From a virus (Duplodnaviria > Caudoviricetes), in IMG/VR virus record IMGVR_UViG_3300037067_015585, positions 170,377 to 234,376 of that record: a DNA stretch of 64,000 nt; one strand, 5' to 3'. The notes beneath the pieces were generated by a model that had not been told where the DNA came from, made no database searches, and saw only the letters and a program-made list of their open reading frames with translations. The first letter of the stretch is position 1. Every line of letters begins with the position of its first letter. Of the stretch, positions 38,745 to 64,000 are shown one piece after another. Position numbers and translations under genes: made by a program.

Positions 38745-38755
38745 ATTAATATAAT

Positions 38756-39190
38756 GGTGTGGCCTGGTGAGGTCCGGCTAGGCATGGCGGGGTTTGGTGG
38801 GGTAGGGTACGGTCAGGTCTGGGTGCCAATGGCACATTTACAAATCAAGAGCAATGTGGTGAGGTGAGGTGAGGTATGGTGTGGCGCGGTGCGGTGTGGC
38901 CTGGTGCGGTCGGGCCTGGCGAGGTGCGGTAAGGTTTGGGTGCCAATGGCACATTTACAAATCAATACTAGTGATATGGCTAGGCGAGGCGCGGTCTGGT
39001 AAGGTAAGGTCTGGTGCGGTGCGGTGTGGCGTGGTAAGGTTTGGGTGCCAATGGCACATTTATAAATCAAGAGTGATGGCCGGGCGAGGTGCGGTGTGGT
39101 TTGGTCGGGTCAGGTCTGGTGTCGTGCGGTTTGGTGTGGTAAGGTAAGGTGTGGTAAGGTTTGGGTGCCAATGGCACATTTACAAATCAA
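38756..39190 (+). repeat. GGY-NN array 1: four (GGYNN)13-17 tracts, each ending in a 29-nt palindromic repeat; putative guide-RNA array
   Basis: TGGGTGCCAATGGCACATTTAYAAATCAA at 38820, 38937, 39042 and 39162; strict 5-nt GGY periodicity in the tracts. Confidence 0.9.
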
Positions 39191-39202
39191 TACTAGTGAA
39201 TT

Positions 39203-40081
39203 ATGAGCTTAACAATATCAATAATCGGCAAGAATGAGGAAGATAATCTTAGTCGCTGTATCAAGTCAGTGCTTCCAATTGCTGATTTGATCGTCTACGC
39301 TGATACTGGTAGTACTGATTCGTCAATTGAAATTGCTGGATCACTCGGATGTACTATTCGGAACATCAAATTTGAAGATTTTGCACAAGCACGCAACGAC
39401 GCGAAGGAAGGCATTCCTGATGACTGGATCTTGCAAATCGACGCCGACGAAGTGTTATTGAATGCCGAAAAACTGCTACCATGCCTCGAATCAGATTATT
39501 ATGAGGCATATCTGTCATCGCAAGAACATCTAATGATCGGTGGCAACAAAACATCGATCGCTATGCGATTGTTTAGAAATCGTGAACATTATAAGTATGT
39601 TGGATGCATTCACGAAATGCCAGAGGATATGAATGCAAGTGGTCCTGACAAGGCCATCTCACCATATATGTTCACGAAGGATTGGGGGTTCGCACATTAT
39701 GGATGTGTTGACGAACCGCTGCGGCGAGTGAAAGTATCTGAGCGTAATCTAAAACTATTAATCAAGGATCTGCATGTTAATCCATATAGGTCTTATAATA
39801 AATACTTGATGATACGCGATTACCTCAATATCTATAAATGGAGAACAGAAGCGAACGGATTTAGGTGTAAGTTTGGATCTATCGAGCACAACCTTTTGTG
39901 TGCAGTAATAAGAGACTACGACAAATACAAAAAAGACATATTATCGCGTTATCGTGATCTAGCAAACGAAGTTTTTGAATCAGCCCAATCTGTGCTATCA
40001 CAACAGGATTATCAATATATTGAAACGAATATGTCGCCAATCGAATTGCTATCATTAGGGTTGAGTGATGCCAGCGCATAA
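39203..40081 (+). CDS. GT2 glycosyltransferase
   Basis: IIGKNEE, DTGSTD, DFAQARN, IDADE, IHE, HYG. Confidence 0.9.
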   Translation: MSLTISIIGKNEEDNLSRCIKSVLPIADLIVYADTGSTDSSIEIAGSLGCTIRNIKFEDFAQARNDAKEGIPDDWILQIDADEVLLNAEKLLPCLESDYYEAYLSSQEHLMIGGNKTSIAMRLFRNREHYKYVGCIHEMPEDMNASGPDKAISPYMFTKDWGFAHYGCVDEPLRRVKVSERNLKLLIKDLHVNPYRSYNKYLMIRDYLNIYKWRTEANGFRCKFGSIEHNLLCAVIRDYDKYKKDILSRYRDLANEVFESAQSVLSQQDYQYIETNMSPIELLSLGLSDASA

Positions 40082-40262
40082 AGTGATAGCAACAAGCCTC
40101 GATCAGATAATTGGGCAGACTTTTATTGACTATGAACACAGTACAGAAGACGAATCTGTTTCCGGCAGTGATGAGGTTATATTGCATTTTTCTGGTGGTA
40201 GCGAGATTTTAATTTATTTCCACCAGCACGAAAAATGTGTAAAGGTCGAGGGAGATTAATAG

Positions 40263-40898
40263 ATGCCAGCACCCAAAGTAATCTGTAGCATTTGCGGACA
40301 AGAGGTCAACAAAGCACAAACGACGCATATAGGTGGTGGTAAACGGGCTTGCCGTTCTCATGAAGGCGTAGTAGAGGCAGGCAAACGTGAGCATGAAAAT
40401 GCTGAGCAGAAAAGACGCGCAGCATTAGAGTCGATGCAAAAGAAGCACCACACACACGACGACATAGACCTAAAGCCAAGATGTATGATCTGTAATAGGA
40501 CTGGCATGCATCAAGTAGAATGGTTTGCTCGTGCAGCAATCGAATTAAAGAAGCGAGAAATATTGCGTGATAGTGGTGCTGCTGCAGCAAAGCCAGATAA
40601 TTCTTTGCTGAATATACCATGTTTATATCAAGTAGCTTGGCATAACAAAAATGTTCAAATCAAGATTCCACATGAGACCTATGAATTTACGCTATTTCAA
40701 CGATCGCTTGGTTTAGATGTTCCAGTGCTTTTGGTTTGCCAAGAATGCGTCGATGAGAGAGGATTAATCACAACGCTCCAGGAAAGACTTGATAACATTG
40801 ATCCCGAAATGTTCGTGAGGATAGCACAAACCGTAGGTGCTATTATGAAATCAGAAGTTGAGCAGGTGGCGATGCGAGAGATAATCGAGTCGAATTAG
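40263..40898 (+). CDS. Cys-rich hypothetical protein
   Basis: CSIC...CRSH, CMIC...CQEC. Confidence 0.55.
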   Translation: MPAPKVICSICGQEVNKAQTTHIGGGKRACRSHEGVVEAGKREHENAEQKRRAALESMQKKHHTHDDIDLKPRCMICNRTGMHQVEWFARAAIELKKREILRDSGAAAAKPDNSLLNIPCLYQVAWHNKNVQIKIPHETYEFTLFQRSLGLDVPVLLVCQECVDERGLITTLQERLDNIDPEMFVRIAQTVGAIMKSEVEQVAMREIIESN

Positions 40899-40905
40899 GT
40901 GTGAT

Positions 40906-41655
40906 ATGAGAATAAAATCAGACTTTCATGATTACTACGATAGCATCCAATCATTTGGGCAAGATCAGTCACTTATCTATATTCGCAAGAAGATCGATTT
41001 CCCAGTTGCGACGGAATTAAAAACAAAGAAGCTGCCATTTCCATCGGTTAGTTTAGACCGCGATCATTCGTTCGCGAGGCATGGCGATCTACCGACCAGT
41101 GCGCGATTTTATGTTATTGGATTTGCCGGAAAAGTCTATCCATTGTTTGAACTCATTTGGTGTTATGATTATCCATATGAAAAAAGATCAGAGTTCTGCT
41201 ATAGCATGGTAGACATAGACAGGACTATTGAGAAGCATTGCAATAAAAAAGCACAAGAGAGTTATAATGAGTTCGTACTACGTAAAAAACGTAGCCGCGA
41301 CTATTGGCGTTGGCGTAACATTGCAATTAAGAGAGCAACATTCGTAGAATTTTTCGACATATGGGGACAAGAAGATCAAACAATAAAAGCTGCGCCGTTG
41401 TTTGAGAAATATCCTGTGTGGGTCATTGAAGAGCGACGTGATGGATGGTATGTTTGCTACAATTGCAATCTAAAGCCATTTAAATTCTTCAAAGTAAAAG
41501 ACCCAATGACCGCGTACCAGGAAATCAATATGTTCTTGAGCAACATAGCAGTGCCACAAAAGCCAATCCCGGTACCATCTGATAAAGATATGGTCAGTAT
41601 TAAAGGGTTTGATAAATTTAGTTTTCGCAAAGAGCCAAGCAAGAAGAAAAAATGA
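40906..41655 (+). CDS. Conserved hypothetical phage protein
   Basis: FHDYYD start, DPMTAYQEI, GFDKFSFRK end. Confidence 0.65.
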   Translation: MRIKSDFHDYYDSIQSFGQDQSLIYIRKKIDFPVATELKTKKLPFPSVSLDRDHSFARHGDLPTSARFYVIGFAGKVYPLFELIWCYDYPYEKRSEFCYSMVDIDRTIEKHCNKKAQESYNEFVLRKKRSRDYWRWRNIAIKRATFVEFFDIWGQEDQTIKAAPLFEKYPVWVIEERRDGWYVCYNCNLKPFKFFKVKDPMTAYQEINMFLSNIAVPQKPIPVPSDKDMVSIKGFDKFSFRKEPSKKKK

Positions 41656-42066
41656 AAGATAGACTCTTCCAGAAAATCACAGAAGACAATCTACCGGTCG
41701 CGTTAACGTTGTACATTACACGTGATGATATTGAATATCACGATTGGGATGAAATTGGTACATGGCGATTTATTAGTGGTATCGATAAGAGGCATCCATA
41801 TAGATCAGCGTCATGTACATTCGTAGAGGCTGTAGCGGCTTTTTTGATGGGTGAAATCGCCGGATACTATGGTGAATGGATAGATCATATAATTGAAGAA
41901 GTCCCAAACTACAACAATGGCAAGGTACTCAAGGTTGAGAATTCACAGATCCAACACAGAAACGTTTGCCCATTATCAAGGGCTGAGTTGGATATACTGG
42001 TGGTTAATGGTTTCAAACCAATTGGGTATACGCCAGATAACACAACAAAACCGCTATTTTAATTGA

Positions 42067-43104
42067 ATGAAAAGAGACACAATGAAGCTGAGCGACTTAG
42101 AAACGCTATTAAAATCCGCTAAAACAGCACACGAACTTTTTGGCGATGATGTCGATGAAACCTATCGCGGATTTGCGATGATTTGCCATCCTGATCGTTT
42201 CGCTACTGATACAGATGAAATCAAGGAACACGCCAAAGAAGTCTTCCAACTTCTTGAGACTCGATACAATGAATTAAAGAAACCACCGGTAGTTTGGGCG
42301 TCATCTGAATATGGCTACCATCTCGGTCGGCAAATCGGCAAGGGCGAAATCTCAAATATTTATCTCGCTTCGCAGATTAGCGACAAGTTTGTACCAAAGG
42401 GTACGAGCAGACCTATGATTTTAAAGGTCGCACAAGCAAAAGAAGCGAACGAATATATCGACAAAGAAGCCAAGATATTAACGGATCTGCGTATCCAATC
42501 TGGAGATAGAAAATACAGCGATTATCTACCAAAACCAGTTGAAATATTTGTTCATGATGGCTTGCATGTAGCCGTACAACATCATTACGATAGATTTTTC
42601 ACGCTCAGTGAGATCATGGCTAGGCATACTAATGGTCTCAGTGGTCGGCATGTCGCGTGGATGTTTAAGCGGATTCTTACTATTATAGGATTCGCACACA
42701 CAGCGAATTACATCCACTGTGCAGTATTCCCAATGCATATTATGTTTAATGCCGATAATCATGGCTGCAAGCTAATAAGCTGGGCTGGCTGCGTTCGCTC
42801 TGAGCAGAAATTGACGGTGGTGCCAATGGCTTATAAGCCGTGGTATCCAAAGAAAGAAATTACTAAACAATATCCAGCAACACCAAGCTTGGATATTTTC
42901 TTGGCTGCGAAGTCGATGCTTGAACTGGTTAAGCTCGATAAAGAAAAAAGCATGACGCCGCAACCACTTTTGACATTTTTAGAATCATGCGTCGTTGAAA
43001 ATCCTTTACAAAGGCCACAAGACGCGTGGAAGCTGTTGGATGAATGGGATACGCTTCTTAAAAAAGTGTATGGCCCTTCAAAATACGTTATTTTGGATAT
43101 GTGA
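42067..43104 (+). CDS. J-domain plus protein-kinase-like fusion
   Basis: CHPD J-domain motif; IGKGEIS, ILKV, IHCAVFPMHIM as degenerate kinase motifs. Confidence 0.75.
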   Translation: MKRDTMKLSDLETLLKSAKTAHELFGDDVDETYRGFAMICHPDRFATDTDEIKEHAKEVFQLLETRYNELKKPPVVWASSEYGYHLGRQIGKGEISNIYLASQISDKFVPKGTSRPMILKVAQAKEANEYIDKEAKILTDLRIQSGDRKYSDYLPKPVEIFVHDGLHVAVQHHYDRFFTLSEIMARHTNGLSGRHVAWMFKRILTIIGFAHTANYIHCAVFPMHIMFNADNHGCKLISWAGCVRSEQKLTVVPMAYKPWYPKKEITKQYPATPSLDIFLAAKSMLELVKLDKEKSMTPQPLLTFLESCVVENPLQRPQDAWKLLDEWDTLLKKVYGPSKYVILDM

Positions 43105-43130
43105 TTTCCTTTTACCTTGGAGTTATTATT

Positions 43131-44111: not shown

Positions 44112-44123
44112 CAACTACCTTCG

Positions 44124-44167
44124 TCGTGCTATAATCCCAAGTCCAGCCACATGGCTGGACTTGGGAT
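44124..44167 (+). promoter_or_regulatory. Class A promoter overlapped by a 16-bp inverted repeat
   Basis: TCGTGCTATAAT (44124-44135) followed by ATCCCAAGTCCAGCCA-CA-TGGCTGGACTTGGGAT (44134-44167). Confidence 0.6.
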
Positions 44168-44186
44168 GTTTTATAACGGAGATGCC

Positions 44187-45380
44187 ATGACGAGTCGCGC
44201 TGTCATTACTGTTGGTTTAGGATTCGGTGACTGCTGCAAAGGCGCGACTGTAGACTATCTATGCAGAGAATTAAAGGCTGATTTAATTGTTCGATATAGT
44301 GGCGGCTGCCAAGCTGCGCACAACGTCATGCTCCCATCTGGAGTATCACATACTTTTAGTCAATTCGGCTCTGGAACATTTAATCATGTCCAAACATATC
44401 TCGGGCCAGATGTAATTGTTTCGCCATTATTCATGATGAATGAGGCGAATCATCTCATTCAATTAGGTTATCGGCCATACAAGCTTCTCAAAGTAGACAA
44501 GGAATGTCTAATCACAACACCATACCATCAATCATTAAACCGATTCCAAGAATTAAAAAGAGGCGATGGACGTCATGGCTCTTGTGGTATGGGTATAGGT
44601 GCCACACGCGAATATTCTTTACTCTACCCTGAGTACGCACTCAGGATGAAAGATTTACACCCGCATCATCACAATAGACTCGCTACCATTTATAAACTGC
44701 AAAAAATCAAGCAGTGGGTCAACGAAACAGCCGGTGTTGGGATTACAAATTATATAGATGTCGATGATATATATAACCATCTATATAATGCATCATGGGG
44801 TATCAACGTTGTAGACGAGATGCCAGAATTCAAGATGGCTGTCTTCGAAGGAGCACAGGGTATTCTACTAGATGAAAACTACGGCTATCACCCACATACC
44901 ACATGGTCAACGGTGAATACGAAACGTGCGTGGGAATTGCTTCAAAATAAAGATGTTGAAGTTCATGTGATGGGATGCACAAGGCCATATATGACGCGAC
45001 ATGGTGCTGGTACATTTCTTTCGTATGATGAAGGGCTATCTAACAGACTATCCGTAATAGCTGATGCCGAGAATCCAAAAAATGAATGGCAAGGGCACGT
45101 ACGTTATGGATTATTAGATTTAAATGTATTGGCATACTCAAAGGCAGCGTTGGGTAGCAAGATGCATAGTGTATCTATGAGTTGTGTTGATCACATCGGA
45201 GAATCGATACCGATTATCGACACAGCAGAAGATGCAATTGAAACCGATCAAGCTGAATTGGGCAAAAGAATTGAACAAGTGCTTGCTCCGATTTCAGTTA
45301 TAGGCGCAGGTAAAAGCTACGCAGATCGCAGCATGACTCAACTGTCATGGCATAGTTTGAAAGATACAATAGAGGAATAA
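44187..45380 (+). CDS. Adenylosuccinate synthetase-like protein (Asp-type P loop)
   Basis: GLGFGDCCKG, RYSGGCQAAH, HGSCGMGI, FEGAQG, TRHGAG. Confidence 0.85.
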   Translation: MTSRAVITVGLGFGDCCKGATVDYLCRELKADLIVRYSGGCQAAHNVMLPSGVSHTFSQFGSGTFNHVQTYLGPDVIVSPLFMMNEANHLIQLGYRPYKLLKVDKECLITTPYHQSLNRFQELKRGDGRHGSCGMGIGATREYSLLYPEYALRMKDLHPHHHNRLATIYKLQKIKQWVNETAGVGITNYIDVDDIYNHLYNASWGINVVDEMPEFKMAVFEGAQGILLDENYGYHPHTTWSTVNTKRAWELLQNKDVEVHVMGCTRPYMTRHGAGTFLSYDEGLSNRLSVIADAENPKNEWQGHVRYGLLDLNVLAYSKAALGSKMHSVSMSCVDHIGESIPIIDTAEDAIETDQAELGKRIEQVLAPISVIGAGKSYADRSMTQLSWHSLKDTIEE

Positions 45381-48725: not shown

Positions 48726-48743
48726 ATGTATTTAAATACATAT
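48724..48743. promoter_or_regulatory. 20-bp perfect palindrome made of two back-to-back class-B motifs (GTATTTAA)
   Basis: ATATGTATTTAAATACATAT between divergent start codons at 48725 and 48745. Confidence 0.65.
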
Positions 48744-50567: not shown

Positions 50568-50588
50568 TTAACTAGCTGGTATTAGCAT

Positions 50589-51410: not shown

Positions 51411-52220
51411 ATGAATTATTGGGAAATAGTTAAACCGACATATATCGAAAATTGGGAACCGGCGCTACATTCCTTAAGTATCGCATCGATAGATATACCA
51501 TTAACTGTGGATGATGCTAAGTGTCTTGGATCGAACATCATCGAGTATGGCGAAGCATTTGGTCGTATGTCTGACATATCAGGCATTAGCTCCAAGGTAT
51601 CTTCCGCTGTCGAGAAAATGCCATCTGGTGCTTTTGTCCGTTTGGGCAGCCGTTCTCCTAAAGACTCTTGGATGATGCACGAAGAAGGCGGGAAGGTGCT
51701 TCCTGGTGAAGATCCATTGCGTTTCATACTAGACTGCTCAGAACGCATTTATGAAGATTTAATATTATCGATACAACAATCATATAATCCCCATATTTGG
51801 GTGCGGCAGTGGGTCGATATTCCCAAATGGTCCGAGTTTCGATGCTTTATGCGGAATCGCAAATTGGCGGGAATTTCTCAGTATTATTATGACGAAGAAT
51901 TTCCAGAAATTGATGCCGATATGTTCGAATGGGCTATACAAGAGTTTTTTGATCTATTTCTAAAAGCCACGAAGATGGAATCTGTGGTATTTGATGTTTA
52001 TATCAAACTAAGAAAAGTGAGACCAAATATAAGAGATATCGAAGTAAAGCTCCTAGAAATTAATCCATTCTTCGAATTGACCGATCCATGTTTGTTCTCG
52101 TGGCACAATCAACAATCCTTTAATGGATCTTTCAAATATAAAAAGATAGAACGTGGTGCATCTGGACCATTTGACGGAGCTAACAATGGACATCATCGCT
52201 CGGCGTGTGGCGGACTATGA
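51411..52220 (+). CDS. CDC123/R2K-type ATP-grasp protein
   Basis: FVRLGSRSPKD, EFRCF, ISQY, VFDV, LLEINPF. Confidence 0.8.
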   Translation: MNYWEIVKPTYIENWEPALHSLSIASIDIPLTVDDAKCLGSNIIEYGEAFGRMSDISGISSKVSSAVEKMPSGAFVRLGSRSPKDSWMMHEEGGKVLPGEDPLRFILDCSERIYEDLILSIQQSYNPHIWVRQWVDIPKWSEFRCFMRNRKLAGISQYYYDEEFPEIDADMFEWAIQEFFDLFLKATKMESVVFDVYIKLRKVRPNIRDIEVKLLEINPFFELTDPCLFSWHNQQSFNGSFKYKKIERGASGPFDGANNGHHRSACGGL

Positions 52221-52720
52221 GCACCTAGAGAATCCTGGTGATTATATTGTTTATGACGAAGAGAACGTAAAGCAGATAACGTTCTTGTGTCCGTGCGGCT
52301 GTGGTGATCTTGGCAGTGTCAATATCAACCAATCTGACCCATATTGTTGGAAATGGAATGGTGATAAAGATAAACCAACGACGACACCGAGCATTAAACA
52401 ACTAAGCTGCGGTTGGCACGGCTATCTAACAGATGGTATCTTCAAGACAGTTTAGGTGATATATGTTGGTCGAGATACCAGATTTGCTTATTGCAAAACT
52501 GAGAAACAATGTTGGTATAATATCAGTCGAATCAGTTGAGTCTAATGCTGAACGAAGCTGGGGTGATTGTTCAGTATATTACAATAGTTTTCTGAAATTC
52601 AACGATCATATTGATACTGGAAGTAGCACAAATACAGATAGCTTGCAAGAAATAGCAAAGGCTATGAATCAATTAATAAAAATAATTGATTCAACAACGG
52701 TTGCAGATTATCAAATCTGA

Positions 52721-55376: not shown

Positions 55377-56846
55377 CTAGACGAAACATTTGTTGAATTG
55401 CTGATGCTCTTTTAATACTACTCCCATCATTTCAGTGAGAGTACTACTATAAAGCTCGTCATGCCCAGACAGCCCTATAGCTCCGTGGACGAATTCGTGG
55501 AGAGCATCAGCTACAATCGCCCAACGTCCAGCAGCATTGAACTTTCGACGCTTTGCCATTGAGCGACTACCGCTTTCCTTTTGCTTAACGATTGTGATGG
55601 GGCTGACGTAATAAACATCGCCATATTCTCTATTGCATTCAAATTCCGCAGCACTATCGTCATCAAGAATGAAGCCGACAGAGAATGTTGCCTTGTGCTT
55701 GAAAATCTCGTGCAGCTTGAGTAGGACTTTTGTCCAAATCGTCGTCAGTTTTTGGCTGTATTCACTAAAATCGCTTGGTAAGTAATGAATAGGAATCTCC
55801 ATTCCGGTATTATTCTTGATGACGAATTCGTGCTTGAGCTTTGATTGTTTCGAGATTTCGTGGACCTGCGCTGTTTTAACTGGTGTCAAAAGCACCGCTT
55901 CATCAACTACCGCATTCTCAACTGCGCGATCGACACCAATAACAAATGGGACTGTGGCGTATGCATCAGCAAAAATCTTCATCATCGTTTCGTTCGCTCT
56001 TTCCTGTTGATTTGAAAAGAGCTTGTCGCCACTGTAATGGATATATCGTGGCTCGTCGTTGCGTAGTGCCGACAATTTGTTGATCGTTATGCTGTCAACA
56101 AAAGCATCAAGTTGTCCCTGATACTCCCACTTAAGAGCATCACGATTTGATTGTAAGACTTCCGAGTTCCCAGACTTCAACTCAACAACGATACATCGTC
56201 TGTTGGAGTCAACGTGGCGATAGAACATCGGAATTCCGTTAATTCGAACCACCATCCGATTTTGAATGGTTCTATTCGTGTAAACTGTGCACCATTCAAA
56301 TTCATCGCGTTTTGTGCCCTTGTTGAGTCTGCAATTGTAGTTTTCACCATTGATAGAGACGTGACCACGCCATTGCGACATAGATAAAAACGCTCTAAGA
56401 TTCGCAATAATCGAATTGGTATAATCACCTTCGATTGTGATCCTCGTCAATGTGCCAGGATAACGAATTTCACGCTCTTCAAGCGAGTAATTGCCACCAC
56501 TGCCGACGACGCGAAGATTTCCGGTGAGAATTTCATAATTAAGATGGCAAAAGAGAAGAATGAGTTTGGCGGCACCAAAACCGCCGACTGTTCCTTGGAA
56601 GTCTTTCCCCGATTCTCCGAGTGTCAGCAATTTTCCAACTAATTCCTCCTTGTTCATGGGGTCGCCATCATTCTCCCACATGAAAGAGGTATTACCATCT
56701 TTGCACTCTGTCCACGTCGTGATATTCTTGGAGTTGGGTGCATCCATACTGTTCTGCATGGCTTCTCTTGGCAATGCCCACAACCAATCACGATAATCAT
56801 TGAGTGATTTCTTAAAGAAGTTCGGTCCAATACCAACAGTAGACAT
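55377..56846 (-). CDS. GHKL ATPase with C-terminal HExxH domain
   Basis: REAMQNSMDA, NDGDPM, GGFGAAK, GT; HEFVH...GH. Confidence 0.8.
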   Translation of the reverse strand: MSTVGIGPNFFKKSLNDYRDWLWALPREAMQNSMDAPNSKNITTWTECKDGNTSFMWENDGDPMNKEELVGKLLTLGESGKDFQGTVGGFGAAKLILLFCHLNYEILTGNLRVVGSGGNYSLEEREIRYPGTLTRITIEGDYTNSIIANLRAFLSMSQWRGHVSINGENYNCRLNKGTKRDEFEWCTVYTNRTIQNRMVVRINGIPMFYRHVDSNRRCIVVELKSGNSEVLQSNRDALKWEYQGQLDAFVDSITINKLSALRNDEPRYIHYSGDKLFSNQQERANETMMKIFADAYATVPFVIGVDRAVENAVVDEAVLLTPVKTAQVHEISKQSKLKHEFVIKNNTGMEIPIHYLPSDFSEYSQKLTTIWTKVLLKLHEIFKHKATFSVGFILDDDSAAEFECNREYGDVYYVSPITIVKQKESGSRSMAKRRKFNAAGRWAIVADALHEFVHGAIGLSGHDELYSSTLTEMMGVVLKEHQQFNKCFV

Positions 56847-56892
56847 TATTGTCCTCCTGACTGTTGTAGCACGATTTTACGAGATTATTAAT

Positions 56893-59886
56893 CTATTCGT
56901 CGTCTTCACCATTTTCAGCAGGTGTATAGTCAATAATCATTCCTTTGACATCATTATAATACTTCACTTTATCTGCGTCGTTGCTATAGCCGTATTTGCG
57001 AGCCTCTTCAAGAAGCTTTTCTAATGTCCAGCCATTTATGTTGATTCCTCTCTCAATAACGTGCCCTGCAATATCTTCTATCCAGCTTGGGTACGTTCCG
57101 CCAGGAAAATCGAGACTCTCTTTATAATCGACCCATAGCAAATCGTCTTCATCGACATAATCATTAAGAAATTTTTTGTGTTGATCTTCAAGCCAAGCAT
57201 TCTTAATAAGCTCGTTGGCCTGACGTACGATAGCGTGGATCGGCTTGCTAAGCCTACGTTCTTCAATCTTCGCTTTTTTTACCTTGCTTTCTTCTGTGAC
57301 AGCCGATGCTATGTTGTCTTCAAAAATTGCAATAGCGTGTTCTTTCCATGGCGGGTTGGTAAGATTTAGCAAAAAGCCTCTGTAGCCTAATATCTGGAAC
57401 GTTAGACCATCCTGATTTCTATCCCATTGCACGACCACGCTGGCATATTCAGGATTTTCAGTACGTTTTGTCAGCAGCCGTTTTGTTATGGCCGCGTGAT
57501 ATTGAAGATAATAAAGAATAACCTTTTCTTTGTCTGATATGACTGCCAACGGACGCAACCACGATCTTCGTCCTCTTGTAGATCGCCAATCGATAAATGG
57601 CGAATGCTCGTCTACATTTTGATTTATAAAACATTCATGCAACGCATTTAACACATACTCGGAAGCTTGCTGCTTTTCAGGATCTGTCAAATGCTCTTGC
57701 TGTCTTGCTCCAACTACCCACTCTTTCCATCGTGGATGACCCCAAACTAATTGCCAGCTTTCATGGCGTTTATCAACAACAGACCATTCCTTGAATGATG
57801 TACGGCGTACAAACGCTCCGCAATCAAGTTGCACGATAAATTTACAATCTGCCGTTGCCAACACAGACCCCATTTGCGTATCAGCACACAGTTTCCATCT
57901 TTCTTCTTGAACAAAGATATTCTCATGGTTCTTAAATCGCAAAACCACATAACTGCGATCTGGGCGATAAAAAATTGCAAGCGTTTGATCTTCTTTGAGT
58001 TTTTCAGCAACTTGCTTATGAACCTCAATCAACGATTCGTCATCTAAGAGGTTTCGCCGCCCGAATTCATCGACAATCATCCTCAATGCCTTCGCATCAT
58101 CTGATATTAACGCTCTGTGGACTCGCGTCTTGAATTTCCACCATTTGATTAAAGCGTCAACATTTCTTTCGGCTCTTGCAATTGAGACATTATGAGTCTT
58201 GGCAATTTCGCCAATAAGCAACTGTCTAAATGGTGCTTCTTCTTCGAATTCAGTTTTTTTAATTGCTAATGCCGCTTTAAGAAGTGGGATCATCTTTATG
58301 TAATGATGCCGATTGGTGCGAGATTTGATATAGAATTCAATATCAGCAATCGTAATGCTGTCAATATTGACAATGAAGTCATCGTGTGTGTAGATCTGAA
58401 AACTTACACGCGGGCCATCAGGACTTCTCCACCGATGGTCAGACTTGTACAGAAACTTGAATCCGTCCTCACTAGATTTCTTGTCAATGATATAGATTGT
58501 ACGGTTGTCTGGTGCATACGAGTGTTTTGTGCCTTTTCGCGATTCTATCTCTCGAAACTGTGTGTGATAGCTGTCGAACTCGCCGATAATCCGGCATCCA
58601 ATCTCCAATTCATTATTCACAGCTTGTAGCCATTTATTGAAGTCTGGCCGTCCGTTGCCAAGCAAATTCTCAGCATCATATCGCAGTGTTATGTGTTTCT
58701 GGTTATCGAGATTGCACACATTGATTTGCTCATTTTGTGGCAATGGATGGAATACTTTGGTTCTGTCAACCAATCCTTGAATCAGAATGAGCACCGTATA
58801 GAAACGACGCTTTTTGGCTTCTGCTTTGTCCATCGCCTGCATATATTGTGCAGATCCTGGCGTCAACGGCTCTTTTACGGTTTCGTGTGTGTCCCAGTTG
58901 GTTTTCGTAGTATAAAAGAACGATTCGAATTCGTCCTTTCGTGGTAGCAGCACTTCTTCAACCCAAAGCGTCGTGAAGATTCTGAATAAGTTGTCACCGT
59001 TCCTGATAAGAAGATACAAGCACTTATTCTTTCTATTCAATTCGGCATTGACAAAGGGGTTGTCATCATAGAACTTATTGCTCCTACGTGCCCTTAATGC
59101 CACAACTCCCTTTCTTTCTGGTAACACTTGTTGCAGATGTTCCGGATCACACACCCACTTGTCGAATTCATCGACGTTCTGAAAATCGATTCCGCCACCC
59201 CTCGCTAACTCACCAGCCACAGCAGATTCTTCATCCATAAATAACACCTGCTGCCGAATAACGATTTTTTCGTTTTCGTCGGCTGGCACGCCGGTTTGTA
59301 ATCTGATGATTTCTTCGTCTTGCCCCAAATACGCATTAATCATATAAATCGCTTCTTGGGCGATTTCGATTTGTTTTGTGAGAAGCTCCGTTTTCGATTT
59401 CAATATTAACTCTTGCTCTTTGATAAGAGTTTGCAATGCTGAATATCGTTTTGCTATTTGGTTCTTCGTTATCGCGAAGACCGTCTTCACTTTTTTCAGA
59501 TTCTTAGCAGCAACCGCAGGATTAGCACGACTTGCCATTGCAACCAGTTCTGTGCTTGTCGGTTTGGCTGGTCGAGAATCGTCACCCAATAATTTCGGCG
59601 TCTTGGATGACTCAATGAGATTGTCTTGCCTATTTCCAACGTCATGCAGACCAGACATTAGGTTGATCATTTCACGCTGCCGCTCTTCGACTCCTTCTGG
59701 TGCGTATTCGAAATGATCTAGAAATGCTTCAAGCGAGAACACCCAAGTGCTTTCGCCTTTGACAAGCGATACTTCGTCTCCCTCAATTTCCATAAGATAC
59801 CACAGATCGCCGACAACGCATTTATCGGCATCTCTGTCGTCTTCTTTGCTCAATTCTTCGACGAGTCTATAATAACCTTGTTCCAT
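56893..59886 (-). CDS. Large hypothetical protein (997 aa) with N-terminal coiled coil
   Basis: Long ORF; no catalytic motif recognised. Confidence 0.7.
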   Translation of the reverse strand: MEQGYYRLVEELSKEDDRDADKCVVGDLWYLMEIEGDEVSLVKGESTWVFSLEAFLDHFEYAPEGVEERQREMINLMSGLHDVGNRQDNLIESSKTPKLLGDDSRPAKPTSTELVAMASRANPAVAAKNLKKVKTVFAITKNQIAKRYSALQTLIKEQELILKSKTELLTKQIEIAQEAIYMINAYLGQDEEIIRLQTGVPADENEKIVIRQQVLFMDEESAVAGELARGGGIDFQNVDEFDKWVCDPEHLQQVLPERKGVVALRARRSNKFYDDNPFVNAELNRKNKCLYLLIRNGDNLFRIFTTLWVEEVLLPRKDEFESFFYTTKTNWDTHETVKEPLTPGSAQYMQAMDKAEAKKRRFYTVLILIQGLVDRTKVFHPLPQNEQINVCNLDNQKHITLRYDAENLLGNGRPDFNKWLQAVNNELEIGCRIIGEFDSYHTQFREIESRKGTKHSYAPDNRTIYIIDKKSSEDGFKFLYKSDHRWRSPDGPRVSFQIYTHDDFIVNIDSITIADIEFYIKSRTNRHHYIKMIPLLKAALAIKKTEFEEEAPFRQLLIGEIAKTHNVSIARAERNVDALIKWWKFKTRVHRALISDDAKALRMIVDEFGRRNLLDDESLIEVHKQVAEKLKEDQTLAIFYRPDRSYVVLRFKNHENIFVQEERWKLCADTQMGSVLATADCKFIVQLDCGAFVRRTSFKEWSVVDKRHESWQLVWGHPRWKEWVVGARQQEHLTDPEKQQASEYVLNALHECFINQNVDEHSPFIDWRSTRGRRSWLRPLAVISDKEKVILYYLQYHAAITKRLLTKRTENPEYASVVVQWDRNQDGLTFQILGYRGFLLNLTNPPWKEHAIAIFEDNIASAVTEESKVKKAKIEERRLSKPIHAIVRQANELIKNAWLEDQHKKFLNDYVDEDDLLWVDYKESLDFPGGTYPSWIEDIAGHVIERGININGWTLEKLLEEARKYGYSNDADKVKYYNDVKGMIIDYTPAENGEDDE

Positions 59887-60117
59887 ATTATCGTGTGTAA
59901 GATATGAGTGCGCTGGTGTTTGAATCTATTTGTTCTTTGGGACGCAGTGTTATATCGATCCCACCATACGGTATCTTACCAAGTCCACAAATACGCAGGA
60001 TGCTGCACGTTTTGTAGACTTTGAGTGTTTCTGGATCGGATGTGTGGAAGTAAATAACTCCACGTTCGCGATCGATCTCTAAAACGCCTGGGATTTGCAT
60101 AATGTCTCCTCTGAAAT

Positions 60118-60171
60118 ATTGTAGCACGAATTTATTCTACAATTAATTAACAGACAGATTCGTGCTACAAT
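60118..60171. promoter_or_regulatory. Divergent pair of class A promoters
   Basis: TCGTGCTACAAT on both strands (60118-60129 minus, 60160-60171 plus). Confidence 0.7.
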
Positions 60172-60176
60172 AAGAT

Positions 60177-60557
60177 ATGGAAGAAGAAATATATACCTAT
60201 TTTATATGCGATAGATGTAGATCGTTTTCGGACCACCAAAAGGTTTGGTGTCCGTCTTGTGGCCAGAAACTACGCTACGAGAAAGACAGGAGAAGCGAAC
60301 TAGAAGCAAAGGGGTTTGAAAGCACATACGATCTTGCTTTTTATAAGCGTGAGGGTGGTAGATTTGAGGCGTTTATAAGAACTCCCAAGACATTCATTGG
60401 GGCTATCAACACGGAAGCTGAATGTACTCTACATATCATAGTCCGGGCGTCACGGAAGAGTGAAGCCATAGAAAAGGCCAGTAAATATGGTAGAATAAAC
60501 AACATCCATGCCCTACGCATTGATGATAATGGTAGGGGCGGACCTGAACTAACTTAA
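60177..60557 (+). CDS. Zn-ribbon hypothetical protein
   Basis: CDRC...CPSCG. Confidence 0.55.
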   Translation: MEEEIYTYFICDRCRSFSDHQKVWCPSCGQKLRYEKDRRSELEAKGFESTYDLAFYKREGGRFEAFIRTPKTFIGAINTEAECTLHIIVRASRKSEAIEKASKYGRINNIHALRIDDNGRGGPELT

Positions 60558-61945
60558 TTGTTGTTCGATTCCATCATCGCAACAAACTTCAAGAAATTCT
60601 CGGACCAACCAGAAATTTCAGCTGTCCAGATTCCCTGATAATTGACGCCATGTGATTCAGATGAGACGTCGATAATGTAGTTTCTTTGGCCGTGCGGTCT
60701 CGGCTGTCCTCTTCCAGGTAAATCACAATCTTGTGAATCACTGAAAATAAGCAACCGATCCGGCGATTCAATCTTATCGCGAATATAGTCACACACCTGA
60801 CGTGTAAAAATTCCACCGCCACCCATATTATCATATGCATCCGTGATATGATCGGCGAGCGAGAATCCACGTGTTGCTTCAACTTTTCTTGTGGCGTGCT
60901 TTCGTTGGTGATCGCTACCAGCAGTCACATAAACAGAAACGTGATCGCAGCACTCTGCCGCAAGCACGGCCATTGAAGCCGCCGCATCAATTCGAGTGAA
61001 CTCTGATTTGCTCGACAGATTGCTGTGCATCGATCCAGACACATCGATAACTAGTGTCGTGAATCCGGCAAGTCTCGGCCATGATTTCGCACACCGATAC
61101 ATCAAATCCTCGATTTCACGTGTCCAATCAGGAGCATATTTGCGAGCTTTAAGAAAATCGATCGGTAATAACATATCTGATTTGCACGTGTCGAATGCTT
61201 TCGCCATCGACGAACGTGAAATCTTTACTTCCTGCATATTTCGCAGATTTTTCAAAAATACGTATGCTGGCAGTTTACCTTCATCAATCAATCGCTCCCA
61301 TACTCCACGCTTTTCATCGGTGTTCTTCGCCGCCGACATACCGACTTCCCAAGTATCAGGAGTAGCCAATTCATTGTACAACAGTTTCTTATATAATGAA
61401 TTGCGATCGCCTGCCGGTTTCGCATGTACGAGACGCATAGCATCACGAAGCTTGATGTCTTTATCCATCTGCTTGTATTTAGCAAGCTGATACTCATCAA
61501 ACTTATCGAACGCAGCCGCCAAACCTCTCTTTACGGCTGCTGGCAATGATTTCTTTTTATCATTGTCGGACCAATAAAGAGATATAAATTCAGTTATCTC
61601 ATCTGGACGCTTACAGATCTTGGTCAGCGTCTCAGCGACACCGGGCATGTGATTGCGAGCCATTTCACGAACGATCAACAGCGGAACATGCCGTAGTTTC
61701 TGATCGTATCTGGCCTCAATAGCAATATCGGCAACATTCGGAACCAACGGCACCAAACTCTTGATCTTATTGACGACTTCTTGGCCATCGCAATATGCGT
61801 TTTTCTCCCACAAGAGGCAAGACATAACAAGGCGACGAAGAGTAGCCTCGTCTCCCTGTTTGGCTGCTCTCGGGCCATATCCACCAGCAAGGTGCTTGTC
61901 AGCGTAAACGTGTGATTTCTTAGTCTTTTTGTTTGTCGTCGCCAT
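60554..61945 (-). CDS. Ro60/Rsr TROVE-domain RNA-binding protein
   Basis: SCLLWE, LRHVP, FDEYQLAKY, TPDTWE, KNLRN, vWA DVSGSM, SDSQ, GWSE. Confidence 0.92.
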   Translation of the reverse strand: MATTNKKTKKSHVYADKHLAGGYGPRAAKQGDEATLRRLVMSCLLWEKNAYCDGQEVVNKIKSLVPLVPNVADIAIEARYDQKLRHVPLLIVREMARNHMPGVAETLTKICKRPDEITEFISLYWSDNDKKKSLPAAVKRGLAAAFDKFDEYQLAKYKQMDKDIKLRDAMRLVHAKPAGDRNSLYKKLLYNELATPDTWEVGMSAAKNTDEKRGVWERLIDEGKLPAYVFLKNLRNMQEVKISRSSMAKAFDTCKSDMLLPIDFLKARKYAPDWTREIEDLMYRCAKSWPRLAGFTTLVIDVSGSMHSNLSSKSEFTRIDAAASMAVLAAECCDHVSVYVTAGSDHQRKHATRKVEATRGFSLADHITDAYDNMGGGGIFTRQVCDYIRDKIESPDRLLIFSDSQDCDLPGRGQPRPHGQRNYIIDVSSESHGVNYQGIWTAEISGWSENFLKFVAMMESNNN

Positions 61946-62243
61946 AATCGTCACCCAGCAGTTTCTTATCAAACCAAACTGGCCAATTAGTTTTTAGGAG
62001 ATCCTCTTTGATCTCCTCGGTTACTAAAATGTCTTGAAATTTTACTAGCGGATTAACGTGATAAAATAAATCACGCATCAGAGAACAAACACCAGTTGCT
62101 CTATATCTCCATCCAATTATTTCTTCTGGCATACCCTCTCTAGTCAGTGAACATGCTATACACAGAGCGATCTCTTCAAGGAAGTAATTCCTTAGTTTCT
62201 CACTGTCCGCTAAGAATTCTCTGGATTTCATAATTGCAACCAT
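61920..62243 (-). CDS. Hypothetical protein between the Y RNAs and Ro60
   Basis: ORF overlapping the Ro60 start. Confidence 0.5.
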   Translation of the reverse strand: MVAIMKSREFLADSEKLRNYFLEEIALCIACSLTREGMPEEIIGWRYRATGVCSLMRDLFYHVNPLVKFQDILVTEEIKEDLLKTNWPVWFDKKLLGDDYGDDKQKD

Positions 62244-62252
62244 CTAATATAG

Positions 62253-62357
62253 AGGCGGTTACAGCGGGAAAAGTCTCACACAGTCCTTAATACTGAGTCC
62301 CTTTTTGAGAGGGGCTGTTTCGAAGTATCTGTGCGATGCGCCACACTGTAACCGCCT
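62253..62357 (-). ncRNA. Y-RNA-like RNA lacking the tRNA module
   Basis: Terminal stem AGGCGGTTACAG/CTGTAACCGCCT; shares GTGGCG, TACTTCG and TTTTCCCGC motifs with its neighbours. Confidence 0.65.
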
Positions 62358-62367
62358 TATATTAAAA

Positions 62368-62506
62368 GTGTTGCGGGAAAAAGCGAAACGGGCTATTTTA
62401 AGCGCTCTGCCAACTGAGCTACACCCGAATTGCTCGGATGGTTGGACTCGGACCAACGACCTCTCGCTCCAATTGCGAAGTAACCCATCTCTGCGCCACG
62501 CAACAC
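62368..62506 (-). ncRNA. YrlA-like Y RNA (permuted tRNA mimic), copy 1
   Basis: Terminal stem enclosing a T arm (GTTGG-TCCGAGT-CCAAC), a closed acceptor-like stem and a D arm (TAGCTCAGTTGGCAGAGC). Confidence 0.85.
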
Positions 62507-62572
62507 AGTTTTATAGGGATATGATTCGCTGTAAGTCAAAAGCCTGCAGGTTCACATATCCTTTTATTTTTA

Positions 62573-62715
62573 AAGTTGCTGCGGGAAAAAGCGAAGTAGG
62601 TAACGTTAGCGCTCTGCCAACTGAGCTACACCCGATTGCTCGGATGGCTGGACTCGGACCAGCGACCTCTCGATTAGCATTCGAAGTAACCCACTTCTAC
62701 GCCACGCAGCAACTT
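62573..62715 (-). ncRNA. YrlA-like Y RNA, copy 2
   Basis: Paralog of copy 1 with a different terminal stem; class-B motif about 10 nt upstream. Confidence 0.85.
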
Positions 62716-62742
62716 ATAAAATACATATTGAATTATCCCCAC

Positions 62743-62994
62743 TTAACATACACCGTGGCATTTAGGGCCCGGCATTTCTGCCAAAACTATGCCGTCATCG
62801 TGAGCAAAACCACTATGGAGTTCACTTTTACTTGCACCAACGCGGTCCACGACACTCAACTGATCGCCAGCGGTCATAAGCTCAAGTCGCTCTGGACACG
62901 CTTCCAGGCACCGCTTCAAACGGTAAACCCATAGACGTTCTTCTCGCGTAAGAGGAGGAACTTTTAATTCGGAAGGTTTAATAATTTTAAACAC
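62743..62994 (-). CDS. Hypothetical protein
   Basis: ORF in a minus-strand run. Confidence 0.5.
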   Translation of the reverse strand: MFKIIKPSELKVPPLTREERLWVYRLKRCLEACPERLELMTAGDQLSVVDRVGASKSELHSGFAHDDGIVLAEMPGPKCHGVC

Positions 62995-63006
62995 GATATC
63001 CCCATA

Positions 63007-63522
63007 TTACATAATGATCGGTGGACGTTGTATAACATCTGTCCTTGAACTGTGTTCTGTCGTACGCATCTGCCGATCTAGTTCAGTCATATTCGCGTGC
63101 AACATCTCCATTTGTGCAGCCATGAATTTGCCCTCGCGATCGTTGACCTTCGCCGACTTATCGTTACTGAGGCACATCAATGATTGGAGGTTGGCTTTAT
63201 GTTGGTGCTTTGCACGTTTTATACGCTTCTTCGATACCAGATAGATCTGTTCGTGCTCGGTCATCATCCTAAGACCAACGTCGCGATATGACCAAAGTTG
63301 AATACCACGTTCGTCTTGCATTCTCTGGACAAACCGCTTCATGATATAGCCACCATTTGCAGTATTGTTCTGGTAGGCTAATTCCGTGCGGCTAAATCCG
63401 CTCACACTCTCCAATTCTTCCCACGTCAGAATATCGCCACGGCATTTCGGCACAGCGAATTGCATAAGTCGATCGACTGCTGCTTGTGATGCTGGGTTAA
63501 ATTCAAATGCTCGTCTAATCAT
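63007..63522 (-). CDS. Hypothetical protein directly downstream of GGY-NN array 2 (candidate accessory factor)
   Basis: GAGGA RBS; winged-helix-like pattern GDILTWEELE...GIQLWSYRDVGLRM followed by a helical tail. Confidence 0.6.
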   Translation of the reverse strand: MIRRAFEFNPASQAAVDRLMQFAVPKCRGDILTWEELESVSGFSRTELAYQNNTANGGYIMKRFVQRMQDERGIQLWSYRDVGLRMMTEHEQIYLVSKKRIKRAKHQHKANLQSLMCLSNDKSAKVNDREGKFMAAQMEMLHANMTELDRQMRTTEHSSRTDVIQRPPIIM

Positions 63523-63575
63523 AATGTCCTCTTTGTAATGATGATTGAATTATACCAGATTGTAGCATGAAAACA

Positions 63576-64000
63576 GTGATTTGTAAATGTGCCATTGGCA
63601 CCCAGACCATACCAGACCCAGCCAAACCAGACCTCGCCACACCCGACCTCACCTCACCGGGCCGTACCATGCCTTATTCGTCTTGATTTATAAATGTACC
63701 ATTGGTACCCAAACCCGACCCCACCAAACCCGGCCCAACCACACCCTACCACACCTGACCTGACCGTACCGAGCCACTTCTTGATTTGTAAATGTGCCAT
63801 TGGCACCCAGACCAGACCAAGCCGCGCCACACCTTACCGTACCCGACCCCACCGTGCCATACCGCACCGCACCAGATCTATTGGCTTGTAAATGTGCCAT
63901 TGGCACCCAGACCTCACCCCGCCAGACCCCGCCGCACCATACCTCGCCGCACCTCGCCGCACCTCGCCGCACCACGCCCCATCGCTCTTGATTTATAAAT
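63576..64000 (-). repeat. GGY-NN array 2 (truncated by window end)
   Basis: Reverse complement of the same 29-nt repeat at 63576, 63683, 63781, 63881 and 63988 (partial); RCC-NN periodic tracts on the + strand. Confidence 0.9.

Follow-up and report, generated by a model that had tools for sequence, protein, structure and literature searches.

This locus raises two questions: what two blocks of five-nucleotide repeats in a large phage genome encode, and at which DNA their variable positions are directed. We analysed a 64,000-nt window (positions 170,377 to 234,376 of the IMG/VR record IMGVR_UViG_3300037067_015585). The window contained array A on the plus strand (38756–39189), with four units, and array B on the minus strand (63577–64000), with four full units and, at the contig end, a fifth tail of which only the last 12 nt remain. 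In each unit, 13–17 GGYNN pentamers stood in perfect 5-nt register ahead of a conserved 27-nt tail. GGY was present in 112 of the 113 in-register pentamers of the eight units, and the remaining one carried CGT; the third base was T in 84 pentamers and C in 29. The NN dinucleotides varied from unit to unit and were also unlike those of G001, a 388-kb relative with the same tail. Between the two arrays, the span 38756–64000 also includes ordinary genes (about 24.4 kb), which lie outside the feature.

In array A, unit A1 (38756–38847) contained 13 pentamers (38756–38820) and a tail (38821–38847). Unit A2 (38848–38964) had a 10-nt leader, 16 pentamers (38858–38937) and a tail (38938–38964); unit A3 (38965–39069) had a 13-nt leader, 13 pentamers (38978–39042) and a tail with one C>T change (39043–39069). 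Unit A4 (39070–39189) had an 8-nt leader, 17 pentamers (39078–39162), including the deviant CGTGC, and a tail (39163–39189). Array B, read on the minus strand, began with the 12-nt remnant of the fifth, upstream unit, B0, and the 10-nt leader of B1 (together 63979–64000). Because the B0 tail was cut by the contig end, array B must run on past the record. Unit B1 (63882–63978) followed with 14 pentamers (63978–63909) and a tail with two changes (63908–63882), then unit B2 (63782–63881; 8-nt leader, 13 pentamers at 63873–63809, tail at 63808–63782), unit B3 (63684–63781; 6-nt leader, 13 pentamers at 63775–63711, tail at 63710–63684) and unit B4 (63577–63683; 10-nt leader, 14 pentamers at 63673–63604, tail at 63603–63577).

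The tail was kept in all eight units with 0–3 changes each, and could fold into a hairpin with a 5-bp stem and a 3-nt loop. Across 25 tails from four sources, 125 of 125 cells were paired; four compensatory cells, in two of the five pairs, gave a covariation score that was reached by none of 500 shuffles. The B3 stem carried such a compensatory change (GTACC/GGTAC). This plan matches that of the Viral Interference Programmable Repeat (VIPR) system, with which phages silence DNA under the guidance of RNA, as set out in three 2026 bioRxiv preprints (10.64898/2026.04.26.720920, 10.64898/2026.04.26.720927 and 10.64898/2026.10.15.759431). Its vrRNAs carry 9–16 YNNGG repeats and an invariant 3' tail, and pair with the target through NN alone, one target base being skipped per repeat (10.64898/2026.04.26.720920). 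Two units here, with 16 and 17 repeats, were at or above the published upper figure. The two blocks are very probably VIPR vrRNA arrays.

A CRISPR array was rejected: the conserved tail alternates with 65–85-nt tracts that are themselves 5-nt periodic, with no plan of 24–40-nt repeats and contiguous spacers. Searches with Pfam and PHROGs found no cas families among the 36 ORFs of the interval 35070–63522.

The blocks might instead act as DNA, as tandem promoters, N4-type hairpin promoters, protein-binding iterons or G-quadruplex tracts. Both arrays lie just upstream of co-directional gene blocks: unit A4 is followed by a glycosyltransferase-like gene starting at 39203, and array B directly by a gene for a 171-aa protein (63007–63522, minus strand). 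A sigma-70-like promoter candidate (38728–38755, plus strand; TTGCGA, 16-nt spacer, TATAAT) stops one base ahead of the first pentamer of array A; it is a consensus match only, at 10 of 12 positions, and shuffles of the region held on average 1.9 such promoter-like sites. A second candidate, likewise a consensus match only at 10 of 12 positions (63559–63587, minus strand; TTTACA, 17-nt spacer, TACAAT), precedes the 171-aa gene and has its first, −35-like hexamer inside the last array B tail. Furthermore, a palindrome would covary also as the binding site of a dimer. However, the internal units lacked a −10 element at the right spacing, and published experiments directly explain the exact GGY/NN plan combined with a Vipr gene in relatives. 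A role as DNA-level elements is very improbable.

No vipr homologue was found in the 234,376-bp record, in which the best local hmmsearch hit had an E value of 1.4 and the best tblastn hit one of 1.6. A profile search of the genome gave no matches; as a positive control, the same profile recovered the gene of G001 (E = 5e-69). The record is linear, about 64% complete, and ends within array B. In G001 a Vipr-like gene (L006:2159–2836) lies directly upstream of the array corresponding to array B; such a gene also stands directly upstream of a same-tail array in L198, and a Vipr C-terminus does so in L207. A profile of 13 Vipr-like proteins matched PDB 36pp, annotated as 'SUSP1 Vipr protein', over its full length (E = 3.4e-29). 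The G001 protein alone matched it at E = 3.3e-6 with the GDWRP loop aligned, in which D177, W178 and R179 contact GGY according to the structural work on SUSP1 VIPR (10.64898/2026.04.26.720920; 10.64898/2026.04.26.720927). The genes after array B and after the G001 array are homologous, and array A is the positional match of the G001 array that comes after tRNA genes. In addition, P0004, which shares 71% identity (over 77% of its length) with the gene that follows array B, starts with a Vipr-like N-terminus, which indicates that close relatives of this locus have or had an adjacent vipr. By analogy with the 388-kb relative, vipr most likely lies upstream of array B, just past the point where the contig stops.

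The phage may, however, carry solo ('orphan') arrays, with no vipr of its own and with guides that load onto the Vipr of a co-infecting same-tail relative, redirecting or exploiting the machinery of a rival. The zero vipr matches in 234 kb agree with this, as do array tails that are almost identical to that of G001, which has vipr. In run X1, where this phage also occurs, one contig end resembled the junction between the last unit and the next gene in G001, so both phage types may co-occur. There is also precedent: one preprint describes solo vrRNAs in 346 VIPR-null phages, and such exploitation of rival machinery by satellites and VIPR-null SUSP1-like phages (10.64898/2026.10.15.759431). Against it, the record stops inside array B at the very side where vipr stands in G001, L198 and L207, and P0004 places vipr beside this locus in close relatives, now or formerly. 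We consider solo arrays unlikely, and a vipr gene beyond the contig end the better account.

A candidate for a vap-like VIPR accessory gene is the 171-aa gene that follows array B. Its homologues lie directly after same-tail arrays in G001 (40% identity) and L207 (24%). The protein had no Pfam or PHROG match and no match among GenBank phages. In an AlphaFold2 model (mean pLDDT 78.2), the N-terminal ~85 residues were predicted to be winged-helix-like and to be followed by two long helices; Foldseek gave only weak matches to this model (E no better than 0.05), for the most part with winged-helix DNA-binding domains.

We then consider what the NN encode. With the final pentamer, next to the tail, left out of every unit, 105 of the 113 NN remained. 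A recount agreed one for one with the 16 dinucleotide counts of the preliminary description, which had proposed that the NN mirror codon usage of a GC-richer genome. The NN were non-uniform (lnL −291.1 for a uniform and −265.7 for a saturated model; G about 51, 15 df), and the two N positions were statistically independent (chi-square 13.6, 9 df, p = 0.14). Of the six phase/strand models, sense codon positions 1–2 gave the best fit with the codon tables of the phage itself (lnL −285.8; runner-up −299.9), and seven of the eight guides individually favoured sense over antisense. Sense 1–2 was clearly best also with the G001 and the 45–55% GC tables. For 3656 NN from other IMG/VR arrays, it was the top single model in all tables built from at least 43 genes; the exception was the >62% GC table, of six genes only, in which antisense 2–3 was best. 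Codon positions 1–2 are also what the published rule specifies: for xNN targets, the skipped base is 'overwhelmingly' the codon wobble position, as stated in 10.64898/2026.04.26.720920.

The composition also pointed to a GC-richer source. NN GC was 0.543 (guide-level bootstrap interval 0.49–0.60), compared with 0.443 at codon positions 1–2 of the phage's own genes (P = 0.003). The own sense 1–2 table was rejected (G = 40.2, P = 0.0006), whereas a table from 55–62% GC viral genes, built from only 43 genes (36 kb), was not (G = 21.7, P = 0.15; sense 1–2 lnL −276.6). The lnL gain of 9.2 over the own table was reached in none of 20,000 simulations under that table. The excesses of CT over TT and CG over AG, on which the GC-richer source had originally been argued, were each significant against the phage's own ratios (p = 0.012 and 0.020). 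In a set of 111 other loci, NN GC rose with flank GC (r = 0.43), and the trend predicted 0.367 for a 40.5% GC phage. The NN composition is thus what would be expected for guides from the sense strand of coding genes in DNA of about 55–62% GC.

Composition did not settle the codon phase. The comparison with other phases and strands favoured sense 1–2 when own tables were used, but antisense 2–3 of GC-rich genes tied with it (lnL −277.1 versus −276.6), and a fitted independent-position model with six free parameters did at least as well, its lnL of −272.6 being the best of the non-saturated models. The outcome that the preliminary description had named as refuting, an equally good fit of other models, thus occurred in part. 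Nor did the tracking of codon phase extend to the closest relative: no phase fitted the 109 NN of G001 better than the uniform model. We weighed whether the NN bias might say nothing of targets and come from position-wise base preferences of RNA or protein, or from a history of duplicated units. The independence of the two positions and the good fit of the independent model speak for this, as do NN runs common to some units (GC/GA alternation in B1; similar 3' ends of A3 and A4). However, the NN make-up of G001 differed significantly from that of this phage despite the same tail (chi-square 47.5, 15 df, p = 3e-5), with G at position 4 in 48 of 103 cases here and 19 of 109 in G001, which argues against a scaffold constraint. 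The correlation of NN GC with flank GC also opposes an uninformative bias, and by AIC the zero-parameter GC-rich sense 1–2 table (553) was preferred to the six-parameter fit (557). Moreover, NN alone set specificity according to the VIPR preprints (including 10.64898/2026.04.26.720920). We regard an uninformative bias as unlikely.

Real guides could also have another aim, such as antisense phase 2–3, intergenic or regulatory DNA, host repeat 'decoy' sites or other VIPR loci. The tie just described allows for this, and reported targets include both strands, other vrRNAs, vipr genes and host repeats in two preprints (10.64898/2026.04.26.720920; 10.64898/2026.10.15.759431). The clear preference for sense 1–2 in the own, G001 and 45–55% GC tables and the published placement of the skipped base at the wobble position stand against it, and no guide matched vipr genes or arrays in 222 loci (565 kb). 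Such other aims have a small chance of being correct. On codon statistics, we somewhat favour the view that the NN reflect sense codon positions 1–2 of GC-richer non-self genes.

No match to ORFs in the window had been noted at the outset, and this held for the whole 234,376-bp contig: for each of the eight guides, with skips of 0, 1 or 2, the best match did not exceed the best of 20 shuffles per rule. Nor were matches above shuffled guides found in G001 or in the 565 kb of other loci, natural targets being expected to match at 80% or more of NN under the 1-nt skip rule. Exact seeds of 10–12 NN from six of the eight guides (A1–A3 and B2–B4), each searched in one public collection, gave no matches; this negative is weak, because exact seeds miss imperfect matches and six guides only were covered. 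Self-targets are absent from other VIPRs too, according to 10.64898/2026.04.26.720920. The lack of a self match supports the proposal of non-self targets; its further part, that these are the host or competing elements, is only inferred, because no real target was found. Judging by composition only, the guides are most likely aimed at genes of a competitor, satellite or host with GC-richer DNA, and not at those of the 40.5% GC phage.

A narrower idea is that this is a lytic jumbo phage that aims its guides at GC-richer host genes rather than at rival elements. Sense-looking sequence in seven of eight guides, a fit to coding DNA of 55–62% GC and the failure to find a viral target would point this way. 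We regard it as a long shot. If true, it would mean programmable, wobble-proof silencing of host genes within host takeover. In a milder variant, vipr is absent and the protein is borrowed from the co-occurring 388-kb relative.

VIPR guide arrays in a large-phage fragment, directed against GC-richer non-self genes, are probably the best explanation overall. The steps of the mechanism were demonstrated by others for phage SUSP1 and are inferred for this phage. A unit of ~100–120 nt would be transcribed and then cut out; no RNA run was among those listed as containing this stretch. A ~20-kDa Cas7-like Vipr would place one protomer on each GGY, forming a helical filament in which GGY is hidden and the NN pairs are presented. 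These pairs would bind double-stranded DNA, skipping one target base per repeat; because of the skipped base, 13–17 repeats would read positions 1–2 of 13–17 consecutive codons and ignore the wobble position. Guide binding would then keep a rival mobile element from being transcribed. At the 3' end, the 27-nt tail and its hairpin would form a cap in place of the SUSP1 pseudoknot.

The preliminary description is thus partly supported: its observation was real, and its reading was correct in spirit and fits a known mechanism though no target was found. A reader given only the letters had reached a key feature of VIPR guides, that variable dinucleotides read codon positions 1–2 of foreign genes. 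The gain is incremental because this kind of system has already been published. The family gains an uncultured clade of jumbo phages, with a short hairpin tail for the pseudoknot and a second array by a tRNA cluster. The composition test, in which NN are compared with codon-phase tables of differing GC and other arrays serve as the control, can indicate the type of DNA targeted before a target is known, and should help with metagenomic phages whose host is not known.

The closest known system is the Type II VIPR of SUSP1 (Vipr, Vap1 and four vrRNAs). Both have a GGY/NN tract of similar length with an invariant structured 3' tail, several head-to-tail units, a small gene after the array with predicted DNA binding (here a candidate with weak winged-helix matches), a GDWR loop (here in the relatives' Vipr homologue), no self-targets and an NN composition resembling codon positions 1–2. 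Unlike SUSP1, with its pseudoknot, the tail here is a short 5-bp/3-nt hairpin with an A/U-rich stretch; the carrier is a groundwater jumbo phage of 234 kb or more; there is a second array in inverted orientation at a distance of 24 kb, next to a tRNA cluster; the longest unit has 17 repeats; the record contains no vipr; and a Vipr of this clade, compared singly, shows only distant similarity (E = 3.3e-6). The VIPR-null phages and satellites described in 10.64898/2026.10.15.759431 resemble this phage in having guides without vipr and a tail common to a vipr-bearing relative. There, the loss was mapped in complete genomes as a deletion of 1,114 bp that leaves one or two vrRNAs, whereas the record here is a fragment cut within an array of five or more units, so that its missing vipr need not mean loss. 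VIPR also resembles the crRNA and Cas7 backbone of Class 1 CRISPR, in which a polymerising RAMP protein coats the guide RNA and flips out bases at regular intervals, tandem units combine a variable guide with a conserved handle, and foreign DNA is targeted. It differs from Class 1 CRISPR in having no long direct repeat and no spacer acquisition module, in being encoded by phages, and in its non-contiguous guide, in which two of every five RNA bases read two of every three DNA bases.

Arrays A and B, the two blocks of guide units built on GGYNN pentamers with a variable dinucleotide (NN), lie at 38756-39189 (+ strand) and 63577-64000 (- strand), and their units share a tail core. This 25-nt core was common to both blocks, with eight copies in the window against none expected by chance; no further copy was found in the rest of the contig. 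Each unit consisted of a 6-13 nt leader, 13-17 GGYNN pentamers in perfect 5-nt register and a 27-nt tail containing a 5-bp stem and a 3-nt loop, and GGY was present in 112 of the 113 pentamers. Both arrays are directed into the intervening stretch of ~24.4 kb, with genes downstream of each on the same strand. The source record (234,376 bp, 40.5% GC), of which the window forms the final 64,000 bases, is classed as linear by IMG/VR, with a CheckV completeness of ~64%. Array B overruns its end: the first bases on the array's strand are the final 12 nt of another tail. Rfam at gathering threshold returned only four tRNAs in the window, a blastn search with the array and 8.3 kb beside it gave no match among GenBank phages, and no RNA run was listed among the public runs with the arrays' stretch. 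We are highly confident that the feature is a pair of arrays of vrRNAs, the guide RNAs of the phage RNA-guided DNA-silencing system VIPR.

Other readings of the arrays were considered. Promoter-like hexamers, which are consensus matches only, end one base before array A and, at array B, overlap the final tail. Tandem promoters of the sigma-70 or T4 type were dropped, as a -10 element was correctly spaced only at array B's last tail. N4-type hairpin promoters, a TRAP-like ring-binding RNA, Rho-loading sites on the C-rich strand, G-quadruplex tracts and translated repeats were also considered and dropped.

The tail stem was analysed over 25 tails from the window, the vipr-bearing relative G001 and two short contigs with same-tail arrays (L198 and L207). 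All 125 stem cells were paired, compensatory changes occurred in two of the five stem pairs (four cells), and the covariation score was matched by none of 500 shuffles. A palindromic protein site would covary alike; thus, the covariation supports a hairpin and is no proof of RNA. In L207, the AAT loop was kept in all four tails, and the stems varied by compensatory changes.

To find related loci, we scanned IMG/VR for ten consecutive GGYNN pentamers and obtained at least 137 loci, in contigs of 40-72% GC. Most of the listed loci were intergenic, shortly before a gene start, and many lay shortly after a gene with a terminal G-x-[FYW]-G-x-[FYW] motif. An HMM for the Cas7-like protein Vipr was built from the ORFs upstream of the arrays in these listed loci. 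It found a 226-aa gene in G001 (388,105 bp, GC 47.0%; E=3.5e-25), immediately before a 10-unit array that has the window's tail. A vipr-like gene and an array with the same hairpin tail were found in this same order in L198 (a 1.46-kb metagenome contig) and L207 (1.7 kb, 62% GC). A 13-protein profile matched PDB entry 36pp, 'SUSP1 Vipr protein', over its full length (E=3.4e-29), and the G001 protein alone matched this entry via its GDWRP loop (E=3.3e-6). The structural report describes one Vipr protomer per repeat, in which residues of the thumb and the G-loop (D177, W178 and R179 in SUSP1) hold the GGY (10.64898/2026.04.26.720927). Among GenBank phages, the G001 Vipr had only distant matches, in three records at 21-37% identity.

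The Vipr HMM gave no match among the ORFs of the 234,376-bp contig (best E=1.4). The 13-protein profile identified a single gene in G001 (E=5e-69) and nothing in the window's contig; tblastn and a genome search of the contig with the G001 protein as a single query agreed with the profile in finding no vipr. Such a result is what a phage truly without vipr would give, its guides being loaded onto the Vipr of a co-infecting relative, and solo vrRNAs have been described in satellites and in 346 VIPR-null phages (10.64898/2026.10.15.759431). On the other side stands the gene order in G001, which is vipr, array and a 173-aa gene; the last shares 40% identity with the 171-aa gene that follows array B. 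This order and the shared post-array gene place the expected vipr upstream of array B, exactly at the end of the record. We conclude that the vipr locus was cut by assembly, rather than that the phage is proven to be vipr-less, and consider a solo array improbable here. Among the short contigs from reads, none spanned the contig end upstream of array B.

G001 carries a second array of three units directly after its tRNA genes, in DNA with a match to the sequence preceding array A; in the window, array A likewise comes after five tRNA genes (Met, Met, Thr, Arg, Ser; 31933-37613, + strand). Another protein, P0004 (173 aa), is encoded on a 1,012-bp contig and is 71% identical to the 171-aa protein over 77% of the query, and it aligns with Vipr N-termini over its first ~44 residues. 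Judged from these alignments, P0004 appears to be the product of a deletion that removed the array and joined vipr to the gene after it. L207 has the order Vipr C-terminus, two vrRNAs, a 171-aa-like gene, two more vrRNAs and a further gene, and represents the same clade in compact form in GC-rich DNA.

The 171-aa gene after array B (63007-63522, - strand) had no Pfam or PHROG match and no match among GenBank phages, and among viral contigs its only relatives were in G001. The L207 gene at the same place was 24% identical. An AlphaFold2 model (mean pLDDT 78.2) comprised an N-terminal helix-strand-helix-helix-helix-strand-strand followed by two long helices. Foldseek returned nothing at E <=0.001; its weak matches (E 0.05 or worse) were mostly winged-helix DNA-binding domains. 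The model agrees with, but does not establish, a candidate like the 'predicted DNA-binding' accessory (vap) genes of VIPR.

The following observations were made on other genes of the window. On array B's strand, 1.6 kb downstream of the array, is a gene for a TROVE-domain (Ro60-like) protein of 472 aa (60554-61972, - strand; Pfam E=8e-17; PHROG 'RNA-binding protein', E=6e-29). An adenylosuccinate-synthetase-like gene (44151-45380, + strand; Pfam E=2e-43; best PHROG '2-aminooxy adenylosuccinate synthetase', E=2e-58) shares its block with a kinase-like gene and with glycosyltransferase-like genes, a possible nucleotide or DNA-modification module. At 51411-52455 (+ strand), a D123-family/ATP-grasp-like protein (PF07065, E=1e-24) extends over the start of a DUF6527 protein (E=7e-19). 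At 55377-59886 (- strand) are two large ORFs, of 997 and 489 aa, for which neither Pfam nor PHROG gave a match at E <=0.001. The segments 23392-23816 and 14911-15051 hold a 78-bp tandem repeat (5.4 copies) inside a 439-aa ORF and also a GAC/GAA-rich acidic tract.

The preliminary description had proposed that the NN mirror the codon usage of GC-richer, non-self genes. Its 16 dinucleotide counts were reproduced exactly over 105 NN, the tail-adjacent last pentamer of each unit being omitted. Position 4 of the pentamer was G in 50 cases, C in 23, A in 21 and T in 11, and position 5 was T in 36, A in 28, C in 24 and G in 17; the two positions were independent (chi-square 13.6, 9 df, p=0.14). The NN were far from uniform (lnL -291.1 for the uniform model and -265.7 for the saturated one), and a fitted independent-position model with six free parameters reached -272.6. 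We compared them with codon tables for positions 1-2, 2-3 and 3-1, sense and antisense, from 162 long ORFs of the contig, and from GC-binned sets of long ORFs taken from unrelated viral and metagenome loci. With the contig's own table, sense 1-2 was best (lnL -285.8), followed by antisense 1-2 (-299.9), sense 2-3 (-302.0), antisense 3-1 (-304.2), antisense 2-3 (-307.0) and sense 3-1 (-315.1). On fit, we rejected for the 105 NN the own-table phases 2-3 and 3-1 in either orientation, antisense 1-2 of the own table, genome dinucleotides and the uniform model.

Tables from GC-richer genes fitted better, and sense 1-2 of 43 genes at 55-62% GC gave lnL -276.6. In simulation, the own sense 1-2 table was rejected (G=40.2, P=0.0006) and the 55-62% GC table was not (G=21.7, P=0.15); the gain of 9.2 in lnL was reached by none of 20,000 own-table draws (maximum 7.6). 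The GC content of the NN was 0.543 (0.49-0.60 by bootstrap over the eight guides), as compared with 0.443 at own codon positions 1-2 (P=0.003) and 0.530 in the richer table. The excesses of CT over TT (10 and 6) and of CG over AG (7 and 2), which had been put forward as signs of targets in GC-richer DNA, did depart from the own ratios (p=0.012 and p=0.020). These results support a GC-richer source. The assignment to codon positions 1-2 held in part: it was the best phase in the own table, and seven of the eight guides individually favoured sense over antisense, but antisense 2-3 of the 55-62% GC bin (lnL -277.1) tied with sense 1-2.

Arrays at other loci served as controls. Across 111 listed IMG/VR loci (3,194 NN), NN GC rose with flank GC (r=0.43, p=3e-6); this fit predicts 0.367 at 40.5% GC, and the window exceeded the predicted value by 0.18 (1.9 residual SD). 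Sense 1-2 was the best single model for 3,656 pooled NN of listed loci with every table of at least 43 genes, and antisense 2-3 was best with the >62% GC table, which held six genes only. The NN make-up of G001 differed from that of the window (chi-square 47.5, 15 df, p=3e-5) despite the same tail, with G at position 4 in 19 of 109 and 48 of 103 NN, respectively, indicating that the window's bias is not imposed by the scaffold. Against the proposal, no codon phase beat uniform meaningfully for the G001 NN (best lnL -299.3, uniform -302.2); the G001 arrays show register slips.

The VIPR preprint describes pairing with double-stranded DNA by the NN only, with one target base skipped per repeat, the skipped base being 'overwhelmingly' the codon wobble; in rival phages and satellites, either strand may be targeted (10.64898/2026.04.26.720920). 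It reports no self-targets at >=80% NN match in VIPR systems (10.64898/2026.04.26.720920). Under the 1-nt skip, no guide of the window beat its own shuffles anywhere in the contig, in line with the earlier statement that no ORF in the window was matched. Nor did any guide rise above shuffles against the whole of G001, where one guide was also run with up to three mismatches, or against 222 loci (565 kb, other VIPR loci included). Exact seeds of 10-12 NN with the same skip gave no match in viral contigs for guides A2, B2, A3 and B3, and exact seeds gave none for B4 in metagenome contigs or for A1 in genome contigs. Exact seeds miss the imperfect matches accepted in the preprint, and six of the eight guides were covered, each in one collection, so these searches are weak negative evidence. 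Composition alone is no proof of codon positions 1-2, of a GC-richer source or of non-self targets. On balance, sense codon positions 1-2 of GC-richer non-self genes are the best-supported reading of the NN, and this reading is in agreement with the mechanism as published.

The window's last 2 kb was found in part in four public DNA runs from four studies (one groundwater, two landfill and one lake water). In three of them (X1-X3), at 63541-63808, the tails had far higher summed contig depth than the flanks, and several contig ends passed from the tail into different pentamer tracts, indicating that many different guides exist on the same tail in these samples. One contig end resembled the G001 junction of the last unit and the next gene.

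A system of the VIPR kind was already published in 2026. The additions made here are modest: an uncultured clade of jumbo phages, with a hairpin tail, that may already be covered in the supplements of the VIPR preprints; the Vipr of this clade, whose G001 copy is only distantly related to GenBank phage proteins; and a second array beside tRNA genes. The published system comprises a ~20-kDa Cas7-like Vipr and ~100-nt vrRNAs, in which 9-16 YNNGG repeats are followed by an invariant 3' tail (10.64898/2026.04.26.720920). The anatomy of arrays A and B matches this published plan point by point.
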